A stretch of DNA of 64,000 nt from an uncultured Chloroflexia bacterium (GTDB taxonomy: Bacteria; Chloroflexota; Limnocylindria; Limnocylindrales; CSP1-4). The stretch is taken from positions 96,001 through 160,000 of the forward strand of contig CAVVJT010000002.1 of NCBI GenBank assembly GCA_963748625.1. The letters run 5' to 3'. The notes below the pieces were generated by a model. It saw only the letters and a program-made list of their open reading frames with translations. It was not told where the DNA came from and did no database searches. Each line of letters starts with the position of its first letter. Position 1 is the stretch's first letter. The position numbers were made by a program, and so were the translations under genes. Of this stretch, positions 50,997 through 55,982 are shown piece after piece.

Positions 50997-51689
50997 TCAG
51001 TGTGCCCCGTGGCCTCCGGGGCCGGCCTCGATCGCCGGTGCCGCGTCGATGTCCGGATCCGCGTGGCCCCATCCGGCGATCGCCCGGCCCACGGCGGAGA
51101 TCGCCAGGAGGAGGCCCAGGATCAGCACCGGCAGCGTCGCCACCGGCTGCTCGCCCGTGGCGGGGTCGGCGGGCGGCAGCGCGATCAGCCCGATCGCCGT
51201 GATCAGCACGCCCAGCCCGAACTGGATGACGATGGAGACCGAGCGGCGGTGCTTCTCATACCAGCCGATCGCCGGGTCAGGGCCGTCGGTGGCGTGCCCG
51301 TCATCCTCCCAGATGCGGATGCCGTTGAGCACCGTCCCGATGCCGATGGTGAGCCCCACCAGCAGCATCGGCAGGTTGAGCGTGAGGCCCAGCGTGCCGT
51401 CCGCCGCGGAACCGCCGGTGACGAACGCCAGGGCGCACAACGCTATGGCGAGGAGCATCCCGCCCGCGTGCATCACCAGCAGCGTGCGTCCGTTCGGGCG
51501 CCACCGCAGGCGCCGCGGCAGCGCGCGGCGGTAGCCCGACCACGACCGGTACAGCCAGAACAGGTAGACCAGCACCAGCCCCAGCAGCAGGATCGGGATC
51601 AACAGCACCAGCTGGCCCCAGTCCGGCGTGATGAGGGGCGTGAGAAGCTCGATGAAGCTGTTGAAGAGCGAGGTCAGGGCGTCCATCAA
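50997..51689 (-). CDS. Polytopic membrane protein, last gene of the oxidase operon
   Basis: About five hydrophobic segments; overlaps the upstream gene's stop. Confidence 0.78.
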   Translation of the reverse strand: MMDALTSLFNSFIELLTPLITPDWGQLVLLIPILLLGLVLVYLFWLYRSWSGYRRALPRRLRWRPNGRTLLVMHAGGMLLAIALCALAFVTGGSAADGTLGLTLNLPMLLVGLTIGIGTVLNGIRIWEDDGHATDGPDPAIGWYEKHRRSVSIVIQFGLGVLITAIGLIALPPADPATGEQPVATLPVLILGLLLAISAVGRAIAGWGHADPDIDAAPAIEAGPGGHGAH

Positions 51690-52261
51690 GCTGCCTTCTC
51701 GAAGTCCATGTCGTCGTTGTCCAGCATCCGGAAGACCGTCCAGCCGGCGAACAGCACGAGGCTGATCGGGATGCTGACCATGAAGACCACTAGGATGGCA
51801 TCGATCAGGCCCGGTCGGGGGGTGACGATGAGGCCCAGCGATCCGGACGGGTGGATCGTGCAGGCGAACACGTTGACGGCCGCAGCCTCAGCCACGATCG
51901 TGAGCGCCTGGCCCGGGTTCACCTGCCAGCCACCCAGCGTGTGGACCACGATGTCCTGGTTGTCCAGCACGAGGCGGTCCCCGGAAACGAGGCGCACTTC
52001 GGACGGCAGCGATGCCGGCCGACCCGCGGCGATGTCATCGGCTGTGCCGCGCGGGATCACGAGCGACACGTCCTTGGGCGGGGCGACCTGGTCCACGCCG
52101 AACGAGGTCCAGGCCACCACCGTCAGCAGGGTTCCCAGGGTGAACCCGAGGACAAGCGAGCCAGCGAGGATGCGCAGCGAGACACGCTCCGCGACGGTCC
52201 GCCGCCAGCCCGAGGGCTGGGCAGGCGTGGTCGCGGCGAGCGGCAGGCCGGCAGGTGTCAC
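51686..52261 (-). CDS. Membrane-anchored cupredoxin-like protein (TM - Cu domain - TM)
   Basis: LDNQDIVVH...FACTIHP, i.e. His/Cys/His ligands, flanked by TM helices. Confidence 0.72.
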   Translation of the reverse strand: MTPAGLPLAATTPAQPSGWRRTVAERVSLRILAGSLVLGFTLGTLLTVVAWTSFGVDQVAPPKDVSLVIPRGTADDIAAGRPASLPSEVRLVSGDRLVLDNQDIVVHTLGGWQVNPGQALTIVAEAAAVNVFACTIHPSGSLGLIVTPRPGLIDAILVVFMVSIPISLVLFAGWTVFRMLDNDDMDFEKAA

Positions 52262-52271
52262 GGGACGCGGA

Positions 52272-52886
52272 TCACAGGATGTAGAGCACCGGGAAGACGA
52301 TCACGAGCCACATGATGTCCACGAAGGTCCAGAACCGGACGACGCCGGTCGCGCCCCAGTGGTCACCCGGGCCGAAGTGGCCGCGAATGCCCAGCCAGAA
52401 CAGCAGGCCCATGGCCAGCAGGCCCTGGAGCAGGTGGAACACGTGGAGGCCGGTCATCGCGTAGAACGCGGTGCCGTACGGGGAGCTCATGGAGAACTCG
52501 GCGGTGGTCCACTCGACGACCACGCCGCCGATGAAGATGACGCCCAGGACGAAGGCCGCCGCGATCGAGAGCACGAACTGCGTCCGGTTGCCCTTGGAGA
52601 TGCCCTTCACGCCGCGGTAGCCGAACCACGACGACAGGAGGAGGATCCCGGTCATCGCGATACCGAGGGGCATGTTGACATGCTCCTTCTCGGTGCCCGC
52701 GAGGTAGAACCGGGCCGCCGCCATGGCCAGGAAGAGCATCGTCTCCGAGGCCATGAAGAACAGCAGACCGAGCCGGTTCATGCCCGGCACATCGTGCTCG
52801 TGCTCGTGCTCGTCGCCGTGCGCCACGGCGTGGGTGTCGTGGTGGAGGGCGGACTCGGCCGCCGGCTCCAGCGTCAGCGCGGTCAT
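52272..52886 (-). CDS. ctaE: Heme-copper oxidase subunit III
   Basis: FMASETMLF, LLLSSW, YGTAFYAMTGLHVFH, FWTFVDIMW; His-rich N-terminus. Confidence 0.92.
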   Translation of the reverse strand: MTALTLEPAAESALHHDTHAVAHGDEHEHEHDVPGMNRLGLLFFMASETMLFLAMAAARFYLAGTEKEHVNMPLGIAMTGILLLSSWFGYRGVKGISKGNRTQFVLSIAAAFVLGVIFIGGVVVEWTTAEFSMSSPYGTAFYAMTGLHVFHLLQGLLAMGLLFWLGIRGHFGPGDHWGATGVVRFWTFVDIMWLVIVFPVLYIL

Positions 52887-54784
52887 GCCTTCACCTCCTC
52901 GTCAGCAGCGCCGGCGACGCCCATGATGGCGTGGGGCCGGGCACCGGGGATGCCGTAGCCGTAGGGGGACCCGACCACGATGGGCGTGGACGGGAAGTTC
53001 TCCACCGGCGGCGGCGAGGGGATGAGCCACTCGAGGGTGCGGGCGCGCCACGGGTTGGCCGTCGCACGCTCCGTCTTCTTGGAGAGCAGCGAGCGCAGGA
53101 CGTTGAACGTGAACACGAGGAACGACGCGCCCAGGGCGAACGCCATCAGCGAGATGAAGACGTTGTACGGCACCAGGTCCGCCGGGTAGACGTAGATGCG
53201 GCGGTTCATGCCGTTCAGGCCCACCCAGAACATCGGCAGGAATGTCAGGTTGAAGAAGATCATCGCCATCCAGAAGTGGACCTTGCCCAGCTTCTCGCTG
53301 AGCATGCGTCCGGTCATCTTCGGCCACCAGAAGTAGAAGGCCGCGAAGAGCGCGAAGATCTCACCGCCGATGATCGTGTAGTGGAAGTGCGCCACGACGA
53401 AGTAGGTGTCGTGGAGGGAGATGTCGGTTGGCACGTCGGCGAGGAAGATGCCGGTGATGCCGCCGATCACGAAGTTGAACACGAAGCCCAGCGCGAACAG
53501 CATCGGCGTGCGCAGCCACAGCTTCCCGCCCCAGATCGTGCCCAAGGCGGACAGGAAGATGATGCCCGTGGGGATCGAGATGAGCTCGGTGGTCACCAGG
53601 AACGGGCCCAGCAGAGCGTTGGGCATGCCCGACACGAACATGTGGTGTGCCCACACGATGCCCGACATGCCCACGATGCCGATGAACGCGGCCACCACCC
53701 AGCGGTAGGCATACAGCGGCTTGCGGCTGAAGTGCGCGAGCACCTCGAGCGCCATGCCGAAGCCCGGCAGCACGAAGATGTAGACGGCCGGGTGGCTGTA
53801 GAACCAGAACATGTGCTGGTAGAGGACCGGGGCGCCGCCGCTGCCCTGGAAGAACGAGGTCCCGAACAGCCGGTCCAGCAGGACCATCACCAGGCTCGCG
53901 GCGAAGAACTGGGTGAAGAACAGGGCGAGCCAGCTGGCTGCGAACACCGACCACACGAAGATCGGCAGGCGGCCCCAGGTCATGCCCGGCGCGCGCATCT
54001 TGATGATCGTGACGAGGAAGTTGAGGCCGCCCGCGATCGAGGTCAGGCCGAACACGATGATCGCGAGGTTGAAGATGACCTGGCCGGACGCGTTGATGAC
54101 CGACAGTGGCGCGTAGGCCGTCCAGCCGGAGTCCCAGCCGCCCAGGAGCTGGGTGGCGAGGAGGCTGACGATGACCACCGGGATCAGCCAGAACGTGAAC
54201 GCGTTCAGGCGCGGGAACGCCATGTCCTTGGCGCCGATCATGATCGGCACGAAGTAGTTGCCGAAGGAGCCCATGACCGAGGCCACCGCGACCGCGACCA
54301 TCGCGATGCCGTGGAAGCTCATGGTCCGGTTGTACGTGTCGGCGTCCATGAGCGGGTTGGCGGGATCCATCAGCTGGAGGCGCATGAGCATCGCGCCGGC
54401 GCCTGCGACGAGCAGCAGGACGATGAAGGCGGCGAGGTACTGCAGGCCGATGACCTTGTGGTCCACGCAGAAGGTGAGGTACCGGCGCCAGTCGGTGGGG
54501 ACCTCCTTGACGGGCAGGCCCACCCACTCGCGGCCCCAGGTCTTCCACATGCCCACGCCGAACAGCCAGCCGGGGACGGCGAGGATGTAGCCGGCGGTGA
54601 CGCAGTGGTCGGTGGACCAGGGCTCCACGCCCATCGAGGCGCGGAGGGCCATCACCAGCCCGGCGCCGATCACGAAGCCGATCGTGGCCATGAGGATGCC
54701 CTTGAGGATCGGCACGAAGGCCGAGATCACCGAGGGCTTCTTGGAGGCCGCGGAGACGTTGGCCGCGGCGACGGATGCGGTCAT
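52883..54784 (-). CDS. ctaD: Heme-copper oxygen reductase subunit I, A2 type
   Basis: DHKVIG, SFHG, DMAFPRLN, WFYSHPAVY, WAHHMF, VVAHFHY, GMNRR. Confidence 0.96.
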   Translation of the reverse strand: MTASVAAANVSAASKKPSVISAFVPILKGILMATIGFVIGAGLVMALRASMGVEPWSTDHCVTAGYILAVPGWLFGVGMWKTWGREWVGLPVKEVPTDWRRYLTFCVDHKVIGLQYLAAFIVLLLVAGAGAMLMRLQLMDPANPLMDADTYNRTMSFHGIAMVAVAVASVMGSFGNYFVPIMIGAKDMAFPRLNAFTFWLIPVVIVSLLATQLLGGWDSGWTAYAPLSVINASGQVIFNLAIIVFGLTSIAGGLNFLVTIIKMRAPGMTWGRLPIFVWSVFAASWLALFFTQFFAASLVMVLLDRLFGTSFFQGSGGAPVLYQHMFWFYSHPAVYIFVLPGFGMALEVLAHFSRKPLYAYRWVVAAFIGIVGMSGIVWAHHMFVSGMPNALLGPFLVTTELISIPTGIIFLSALGTIWGGKLWLRTPMLFALGFVFNFVIGGITGIFLADVPTDISLHDTYFVVAHFHYTIIGGEIFALFAAFYFWWPKMTGRMLSEKLGKVHFWMAMIFFNLTFLPMFWVGLNGMNRRIYVYPADLVPYNVFISLMAFALGASFLVFTFNVLRSLLSKKTERATANPWRARTLEWLIPSPPPVENFPSTPIVVGSPYGYGIPGARPHAIMGVAGAADEEVKA

Positions 54785-54786
54785 CG

Positions 54787-55839
54787 TCACTTCACCTCGA
54801 GGGTGCCGGTCATGGTGGTCGGGTGCGCCTGGCACAGGAAGTTGTAGGTGCCGGCGGGCAGTGGATCGATGTTGAGGACCTGCTCGATGGCGCCTGGCTG
54901 GAAGTCGGTGGCGCCCAGCGGCTTGCCGTCGGCGCCGAGGACCGCGATGTTGTGGATCACGCCCTCGTCGTTGTTGCTGAACGTGATCGAGATGGGCTGG
55001 GCGGGCACGGCGCTCAGGGTGTTCGGATTGAACTTGAAGTCCACGGTGCCGGCCGGGTTGTTCGCCTCGATCGCGAGCAGCTGGGCACCCTCGACGGGCC
55101 CGCCACCGCCGCCGCCGGTCTTGTTCTCCTCGACCCAGGCGGTGAACTCAGCCTCCTCCACGACGCGCACCGGGACCATCATCCGCGCGTGCTCGCCGCC
55201 GCACAGCTGCGAGCACTGCAGGCGGAAGTTCGCGTCGCCCTCGTAGGAGCCCGTCTCGGTGGGCGTCATCGACATGTAGGTGGTGAGGCCGGGGACGGCG
55301 TCCCAGCGCATGCGGAAGGCGGGGACCCACACGGAGTGGACCACGTCCGACGAGGTGATCTCGAAGCCCACGGACTTGCCCACCGGCAGCACGAGCTCGG
55401 TGCTGCTCTTGGCGCTCTGGCCGGGATAGGTGATGGTCCAGCCCCAGCGGAACCCGTTGACCTGCACGACGACGTCGGGCTGTTCCACGAGGGCCACGAC
55501 CTTCGGCAGCTCCGTGAGGCCGGGGTAGACCATGACGCCCACGGCCATCAGCGAGGTCACGATGAACCAGGCGAGCGGGATCGGGCCGCGACCGGTGATC
55601 GGCGCACCATCCTCGGCCGGCTGGCCCCGGTGGCGGAAGGCGAAGACGGAGTACCCCAGGCCTGCGATCACGAACGTGAACACGGGCACCGACATGATCA
55701 GGAGGATCTTGAACGTCTCATCGATCATCTCGCCCTTGTCGGTCGCGACGACGGGCTGGAACGGGACGTTGGCCAGGACCAGGCCGATGGCGGTGAGGAC
55801 CAGCCAAAGCAGGCCCACGATCAAGATGTGGCGCCTCAC
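54787..55839 (-). CDS. ctaC: Heme-copper oxidase subunit II (CuA) fused to a C-terminal type-1 blue-copper domain
   Basis: DVVHS...CSQLCGGEHARM CuA site, Gly6 linker, then HN...CQAHPTTM; GGAGGAGG RBS. Confidence 0.93.
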   Translation of the reverse strand: MRRHILIVGLLWLVLTAIGLVLANVPFQPVVATDKGEMIDETFKILLIMSVPVFTFVIAGLGYSVFAFRHRGQPAEDGAPITGRGPIPLAWFIVTSLMAVGVMVYPGLTELPKVVALVEQPDVVVQVNGFRWGWTITYPGQSAKSSTELVLPVGKSVGFEITSSDVVHSVWVPAFRMRWDAVPGLTTYMSMTPTETGSYEGDANFRLQCSQLCGGEHARMMVPVRVVEEAEFTAWVEENKTGGGGGGPVEGAQLLAIEANNPAGTVDFKFNPNTLSAVPAQPISITFSNNDEGVIHNIAVLGADGKPLGATDFQPGAIEQVLNIDPLPAGTYNFLCQAHPTTMTGTLEVK

Positions 55840-55982
55840 GGACGCGCGACCTCCTCCTGGATGCGTGGGTGAGTGGGGGACAGGGACGCGACGGGCGGCG
55901 CCAGCAGGCTGCGACACCGCACAGGGAGGGGAGTATGGGAACGGATGTGCCTTTCGGCACGTCCAGTTGGCCTAGCCATTCT

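Follow-up and report, generated by a model that had tools for sequence, protein, structure and literature searches.

Textbook models of A-type oxidases require a lysine in the K channel for the reduction of the oxygen-binding site, and Lys362 is needed for normal turnover in the A-family enzymes that have been studied. How protons reach the active site of such an enzyme when this lysine is missing is the question raised by a locus in the genome of an uncultured Chloroflexia bacterium (contig CAVVJT010000002.1, positions 96,001 to 160,000; this stretch of 64,000 nucleotides is referred to below as the window). An A2-type heme-copper oxidase is encoded there by the operon coxB-coxA-coxC (52272-55917) of the minus strand, the strand on which all features of the window described here lie. 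A preliminary description of the window had drawn attention to the span 53540-53790, which covers residues ~349-432 of subunit I from the YSHPAVY motif to the end of helix VIII, and had proposed that the enzyme has lost its K proton channel. The canonical K-path residues Lys362, Ser299 and Trp366 of subunit I and Glu101 of subunit II are indeed replaced by apolar or other residues. Nothing is missing from the active site, the CuA site or the D channel. The answer favoured here, held tentatively and with slightly less than even confidence, is that the protein is a working and selected aa3-type (A2) O2 reductase which would receive the protons of its reductive phase via a remodelled polar network.

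Subunit I is encoded by coxA (52883..54835), a frame of 650 codons that matches PF00115 (E=3.7e-142) and the Thermus thermophilus caa3 oxidase (2yev_A, E=4.1e-130). Residue 1 is set at the GTG at 54835. Translation probably begins at Met18 (54784), the first residue of the identical database protein P0001 (633 residues; ATG 54782-54784). Positions 362, 353, 299 and the like refer to what we take to be the numbering of the Rhodobacter sphaeroides enzyme. The sequence was aligned with HMMER to T. thermophilus caa3, to the plant mitochondrial COX1 (7jro_a) and to the Mycobacterium tuberculosis CtaD (8hcr_F), and helices VI-VIII aligned without gaps.

Helix VIII spans residues 406-434 (53534..53620), of which residues 415-430 read TTELISIPTGIIFLSA. 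In the caa3 alignment IAVPTGVKLF lies over ISIPTGIIFL, which puts Ile426 (53558-53560) at the K-channel lysine, and in all three alignments Ile426 stands opposite the Lys of PTG(V/I)K. Nine residues upstream, Glu417 (position 353; 53585-53587) is found opposite Ala, Met or Leu. The same helix carries Thr416, Ser420 (position 356; 53576-53578), Pro422 and Thr423, while Leu428 and Ala430 replace Phe and Trp. Leu363 (53747..53749) occupies the Ser299 position, opposite Ala or Ser in the alignments; this position is Leu in 32 of 38 aligned Lys-less sequences and Ser in 91 of 96 Lys-bearing ones. The replacement of Lys362 by Ile and of Met353 by Glu and the altered Ser299 position, all read earlier from the sequence, are thus recovered by alignment with oxidases of solved structure, with Ile and no Lys at the lysine position. 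The canonical K channel is made of Lys362, Thr359, Ser299 and Tyr288 (Sousa et al. 2011). When Glu101 of subunit II is included, only Thr423, which retains position 359, and Tyr352 are kept. The lower part of the path is uniformly apolar (Ile426, Leu428, Ala430 and Leu363, with Pro114 of subunit II).

The change extends to subunit II, a protein of 376 residues encoded by coxB (54787..55917; PF00116, E=3.5e-13). Pro114 (55576..55578) is found at the position of the K-channel entry Glu, the segment PIPLAW being aligned with PLEIAW of the R. sphaeroides subunit (1m56_B) and with LEVVW of caa3 (2yev_B). The entry Glu is kept in none of 11 Lys-less loci and in all four Lys-bearing sister loci. The absence of this Glu had been noticed in the preliminary description, and the counts agree with its proposal of a coordinated loss across both subunits.

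By contrast with the K path, catalytic residues are conserved. The YSHPAVY motif (residues 346-352; 53780..53800) contains the Tyr-Ser pair of A2 enzymes, the CuB ligand His348 and the cross-link Tyr352. The six His ligands of heme a (two), heme a3 (one) and CuB (three) are all present (His175, His348, His397, His398, His483 and His485), and together with the cross-link Tyr they are kept in 38 of the 38 Lys-less sequences. The five CuA ligands of subunit II (His194, Cys235, Cys239, His243 and Met246) align with those of 1m56_B and 2yev_B. The D channel is represented in coxA by Asn193, Asp204, Asn211, Thr265/Ser266 and Asn272, which we take to correspond to Asn121, Asp132, Asn139, Ser200/201 and Asn207 of R. 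sphaeroides. Among the 38 Lys-less sequences N121 is retained in 37, D132 and N139 each in 36 and N207 in all. These observations support the earlier statement that the His ligands, the cross-link Tyr and the D-channel residues are kept, and all of them could be located in coxA. As a side observation, the His and Asp of the Mg site of subunit I are variable within the clade.

The enzyme belongs to the A2 subtype, with Tyr-Ser in helix VI instead of Glu286 and an Ala at position 286. Judged by its overall sequence and its position in the tree, subunit I is a member of the A family despite its departure from the canonical K channel, and the enzyme is a candidate proton-pumping oxidase. The AlphaFold2 model of coxA, built from 84 sequences, has a mean predicted local distance difference test score of 93.5, and its top Foldseek matches are caa3, then the aa3 oxidases of R. 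sphaeroides and Paracoccus. According to DSSP on this model, two extra N-terminal transmembrane helices (residues 37-67 and 75-104; 54524..54727) precede the canonical helix I.

The Lys-less signature is strongly conserved. A comparison with 120 homologues sharing 66-100% identity revealed E353, S356, the YS..A motif and an apolar residue at position 362 in 120 of 120, the latter being Val in 62, Ile in 56, Leu in one and Met in one. Because of this conservation the Lys-less state is selected and does not reflect decay; non-conservation among orthologues, which the preliminary description had named as a sign of decay, is not observed. A broader view was obtained from 80 genome loci, of which 68 carry PTG(I/V)K and 12 are Lys-less. 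Half of these 12 are A2 types labelled Chloroflexota or Dehalococcoidia with 60-66% identity. The other six, labelled Acidimicrobiia or Actinomycetota, are 41-42% identical and have the same helix VIII signature but read HPEVY, with the Glu of the A1 type.

The residue gained at position 353 varies with the residue at position 362. In 141 aligned sequences (80 with Lys, 44 with an apolar residue and 17 with Gln or His at 362), Glu353 was found in none of the Lys-bearing sequences, in 23 of the 44 apolar ones, where it is accompanied by Ser or Thr at 356, and in one of the 17 with Gln or His. In an IQ-TREE phylogeny of 59 sequences from which the helix VIII columns had been removed, 11 bacterial Lys-less sequences form a clade (support 100/99) that includes the COX1 of Acidiferrobacter thiooxydans (P0132). 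Its sister group is composed of P0126, which is Lys-less, and of two Lys-bearing proteins. A second Glu353 clade (support 100/100) is located among A1 sequences and carries Marsarchaeota, Thermoplasmata, Euryarchaeota and Nitrososphaerota labels. Forcing all 18 Glu353 sequences together costs 293.5 log-likelihood units (approximately unbiased (AU) test, p=0.0003). The gain of Glu goes with the loss of Lys in about two of three independent contrasts and the opposite is seen in none. A separate clade of long proteins (~650-850 residues) has Gln at the K-channel Lys (P0142, P0173, P0177, P0180, P0182, P0193, P0198, P0218, P0222, P0229, P0248 and others); these proteins are probably fusions of subunits I and III.

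Glu353 is not the sole change. Compared with Lys-bearing sequences, the clade has gained Ser391 on helix VII, Glu417 and Ser420 on helix VIII, Asn454 and Asp467 on helix IX and Thr487 on helix X. It has lost Ser299, Lys362, Trp366, a helix XI His (now Phe536) and a Thr of helix V/VI. The gains on helices VII, IX and X fall within 53381..53665, a span that also holds the heme ligands His483 and His485. The archaeal clade shares Ser391, Glu417, Ser420 and Phe536. Taken together, the polar gains on helices VII-X and the second, archaeal Glu353 clade suggest a channel that was remodelled rather than lost. As for position 536 (53228-53230), it is a helix XI His in 74 of 96 Lys-bearing sequences and Phe in 36 of 38 Lys-less bacterial ones. 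Phe is also found there in most other Lys-less lineages, archaeal ones among them, and the site, towards the outer end of helix XI, is remote from the K channel.

A remodelled route or proton reservoir is favoured because the gains sit on four helices around heme a3. According to this model, the protons of the reductive half-cycle would reach the heme a3-CuB site through a polar network on helices VII-X, centred on the invariant Glu417 (353), Ser420 (356) and Thr423 (359), with Ser391, Asn454 and Thr487 as possible further members. The D channel would serve the oxidative half-cycle and pumping. Electrons would probably enter from a cupredoxin domain fused to subunit II and pass to CuA. The AlphaFold2 model shows a break in helix VIII at residue 419, with Glu417 on one side of it and Ser420 on the other.

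Several points weigh against this model. Ideal helix geometry puts positions 353 and 362 about 180 degrees apart, with 353 ~13 A higher, and Glu353 is therefore no like-for-like replacement of the lysine. That Glu417 faces the Tyr/heme a3 cavity or touches Ser420 is a supposition. The 141 aligned sequences are related, with more than 20 of them coming from the clade of the query itself, and 21 of the 44 representatives with an apolar residue at 362 do not have Glu353, which is therefore dispensable for a Lys-less enzyme. The group submitted to the AU test was chosen once the tree had been seen, and the independent contrasts on supported branches number three, for which a sign test is not significant (p 0.25-0.5). 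Finally, the literature on the clade, as far as consulted, contains no biochemical characterisation of proton uptake for any member.

Three routes of proton input are known: family A relies on a Lys, family B on Thr/Ser/Tyr, and the C family has a type of its own. It could be proposed that Glu353, Ser356 and Ser327 constitute a fourth one, in which a carboxylate near the binuclear centre would stand in for the Lys. Such a route would have at least two origins, one in the bacterial clade with two extra helices and one in archaeal COX1-3 fusions. This joint claim is regarded as doubtful.

All chemical and pumped protons might instead travel through the D channel, the first of the two options (D-channel-only or Glu-rewired) named in the preliminary description. 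Glu417 and the other gains would then be non-conducting and would tune redox potentials or the pKa of Tyr/CuB, or stabilise the fold. The clade is read in this way in the 2020 preprint (bioRxiv 10.1101/2020.03.01.968255). The near-complete retention of the D channel (36-38 of the 38 Lys-less sequences), the apolar lower K path and the lack of Glu353 in about half of the other Lys-less representatives all fit such a scheme, but neither the invariance of the Glu353/Ser356 pair nor its recurrence in an unrelated archaeal clade is explained by it. Moreover, reduction of the binuclear centre in the A-type enzymes that have been studied depends on the K channel, for which the D channel cannot substitute. 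The D channel as sole route is thus considered a serious yet rather improbable explanation, and the remodelled network is retained as the preferred one.

A further possibility, argued for by Degli Esposti et al., is that nothing was lost, the clade being ancestral to Lys-bearing A-type oxidases and the Lys never having been present. In published Bayesian and maximum likelihood trees, the base of family A is indeed formed by the proteins that have the two additional helices (PMC8239418). A rooted tree was built here by a quick search with B-like and C-like outgroups from Chloroflexota genomes, which contribute four very long branches. In this tree the Lys-less clade is nested three supported nodes (Shimodaira-Hasegawa approximate likelihood ratio test 98, 97 and 83) inside Lys-bearing A2 proteins, and the outgroup joins elsewhere. 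The N-terminal extension is common to the Lys-less clade and its Lys-bearing A2 sisters: the proteins that surround the clade carry it as well. Contrary to the published basal placement, this favours loss of the Lys over ancestral absence, which we consider unlikely. Within the tree, the HPEVY Lys-less enzymes (L029, L031, L032, L033, L055, L073 and L101-L103) are nested inside the YS ones. The A1/A2 motif has therefore been switched within the clade and is not a stable clade marker.

The preliminary description also envisaged an altered substrate. An enzyme that reduces NO or H2O2 and is no longer a respiratory O2 reductase is very improbable, even if a buried Glu of helix VIII recalls the motif H-H-x-Arom-Arom-x17-E of nitric oxide reductases (NORs) (Sousa et al. 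2011). Both cNOR and qNOR, which have no cross-link Tyr, are recognised by that motif and by H-x-Arom-x-E (Sousa et al. 2011), and the latter is absent from the query, which reads HPAVY with the Tyr in place. The cross-link Tyr and the three CuB His, invariant in the 38 Lys-less sequences, are present together with both heme ligand pairs and the five CuA ligands. Equating the helix VIII Glu with that of NOR was rejected on register: it lies 19 residues past the second His versus 21 in NOR-like proteins, the helix VIII Pro being at +24 in both. A comparison with a C-family Glu, in line with the published 'KC-channel' idea, is at most tentative: in a C-like protein from a related genome, a Glu is found 17 residues past the second His and aligns to position 351, in a divergent alignment of this one sequence. 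None of the 60 PDB matches (E<=0.001) is named nitric oxide reductase. The source genome (4.63 Mb, 98.3% complete) has coxA as its sole PF00115 match and only heme-copper oxidase, without any NOR-like or C-family-like heme-copper protein. The earlier interpretation thus stands as to a coordinated and conserved loss already known in Chloroflexota, and is not supported as to the substrate, the active-site ligands being intact. Lastly, a decaying or non-functional gene is next to impossible given the open frame, the syntenic operon and the signature shared by all 120 homologues.

The C-terminal part of coxB is a fused type-1-copper-like cupredoxin domain (54790..55095; PF13473, E=2.4e-10). Its putative ligands are His322, Cys362, His365 and Met369, in a His / Cys-x2-His-x4-Met pattern, and its PDB matches to pseudoazurin and plastocyanin are weak (E 0.2-0.9). 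The extension is present in three of six Chloroflexota-type loci (L002, L004 and L007). In the CuA loop, Gln237 (55207-55209) replaces the Glu of C-x-E-x-C. The same Gln occurs in 5/5 Acidimicrobiia-type Lys-less loci and the Glu in 6/6 other Chloroflexota-type loci. The loss of this Glu was called unique to proteobacterial iron oxidisers in the 2020 preprint (bioRxiv 10.1101/2020.03.01.968255).

Downstream of coxA, coxC (52272..52886) codes for a subunit III of 204 residues (PF00510, E=8.5e-19) that is syntenic in L002-L006. It is followed by orf191 (51686..52261), coding for a conserved membrane protein whose homologues are located directly 3' of coxC in L002, L004 and L005. The hydrophobic open reading frame orf230 (50997..51689) overlaps the end of orf191 and may or may not be part of the operon. 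No Pfam match was obtained for either. For orf230, the comparison of 15 loci gave no tblastn match and revealed no conserved neighbour. Both ends of the orf191 product contain hydrophobic stretches, and a Cys-x2-His-x4-Leu stretch was recognised in it by visual inspection; in Atlas it falls with Chloroflexota-only hypothetical clusters at 0.95-0.96, with a weak COX2/cupredoxin lead at 0.81.

The source genome also encodes a cytochrome bd oxidase and a heme A synthase. The match to the latter (L083, C5:22644-23489) lies inside an open frame of 717 residues and may be a CtaA fusion of the kind listed for some phyla in the 2021 paper (PMC8239418). Related genomes of the same phylum (L087, L088, L091 and L086) encode NOR-like proteins (HLWVEG ... 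HHYYW) and C-family-like heme-copper proteins. Parts of coxA, coxB and coxC are spanned by contigs of three RNA libraries (90-97% alike); these contigs are short, come from relatives and could reflect DNA carry-over, and are weak evidence that the three genes are transcribed. No habitat or strain is claimed because at most 0.24 of the sampled words occur in any one sequencing run.

The enzyme is a further member of an already described Lys-less A2 lineage with two extra N-terminal helices. The preliminary description mentioned that A2 enzymes with an altered K channel had been noted in Chloroflexota, and the record was found in the 2020 preprint of Degli Esposti et al. This preprint describes acidophilic iron oxidisers with an Ile for the Lys in COX1, a COX2 without the entry Glu and a conserved D channel. 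It calls an A2 type without a functional K channel 'a rare case' and places metagenome-assembled genomes of Actinobacteria and Chloroflexi in the same group (bioRxiv 10.1101/2020.03.01.968255). In the 2021 paper, the clade with two extra N-terminal helices is basal and repeated loss of the K channel is reported for archaeal family A (PMC8239418). A 2026 preprint on Ferrigenium states of a K-less COX that its function 'remains unclear'. The Glu of helix VIII and the other polar gains are not discussed in the main texts: 'Glu' does not occur in that of 2021, where 'KC-channel' is named once (PMC8239418), and its three mentions in the preprint concern COX2 residues only. The co-variation of Glu353 and Ser356 and the second, archaeal origin are what the present analysis adds, and may already be covered by the supplements or by the 2020 paper in Biochimica et Biophysica Acta.

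As the variant has been published before, the gene itself does not represent a new kind of system. Its interest lies in the lineage, a large natural one (Chloroflexota, Acidimicrobiia, iron oxidisers and some archaea) that lives without the K-channel Lys. The lineage constitutes a natural experiment on proton access to the active site and on pumping stoichiometry, in which the invariant Glu353/Ser356 pair provides concrete residues to mutate.

The closest described relatives are those of the '2TM' clade (Degli Esposti et al., PMC8239418). They share with the query the replacement of the Lys by Ile or Val, the loss of the COX2 entry Glu, the D channel, the A2 class, the two extra helices and a grouping with the COX1 of the iron-oxidising acidophile Acidiferrobacter thiooxydans (P0132), and metagenome-assembled genomes of Chloroflexi and Actinobacteria are among their sources. 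The placement differs, at the base of family A for the authors and nested in Lys-bearing A2 proteins in the rooted tree presented here. The rus operon of Acidithiobacillus ferrooxidans combines a Lys-less COX with neighbouring genes for membrane-bound cupredoxins (bioRxiv 10.1101/2020.03.01.968255). In the query, the cupredoxin is fused to coxB and orf191, after coxC, is a possible second one; the source bacterium belongs to another phylum, and the sequence bears no sign of acidophily or iron oxidation, cyc2 and cyc1 not having been searched for.

The archaeal COX1 and COX1-3 fusion clade resembles the query in E353, S/T356, an apolar 362, S391 and F536. It is nevertheless separate and located among A1-type sequences. 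Phe at 359 is frequent among its members, as is a fusion to subunit III, and few of them have N454, D467 or T487. The B family (ba3-type) is likewise devoid of a Lys at 362, its channel being thought to use helix VIII hydroxyl residues. B-like proteins of related genomes have Thr 362, Ser 359 and Phe 353 and no D channel, in contrast to the Ile, Thr and Glu and the full D channel of the query. With Ile/Thr/Leu where family B has Thr/Ser/Tyr, and a PDB ba3 match of only E=6.8e-8, the query falls outside this family.

The best match is the caa3 oxidase of T. thermophilus (2YEV), an A2 enzyme of solved structure (E=4.1e-130, 44% identity, root-mean-square deviation 1.1 A over 499 columns). Both enzymes have the YS motif and an electron-carrier domain fused to subunit II. 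Unlike the query, caa3 has kept the Lys (PTGVK) and the subunit II Glu (LEVVW), and it has no two-helix N-terminal extension. The fused carrier is a cytochrome c in caa3 and a cupredoxin in the query; by analogy, the coxB domain would be the copper counterpart of the cytochrome c fused in caa3 oxidases.

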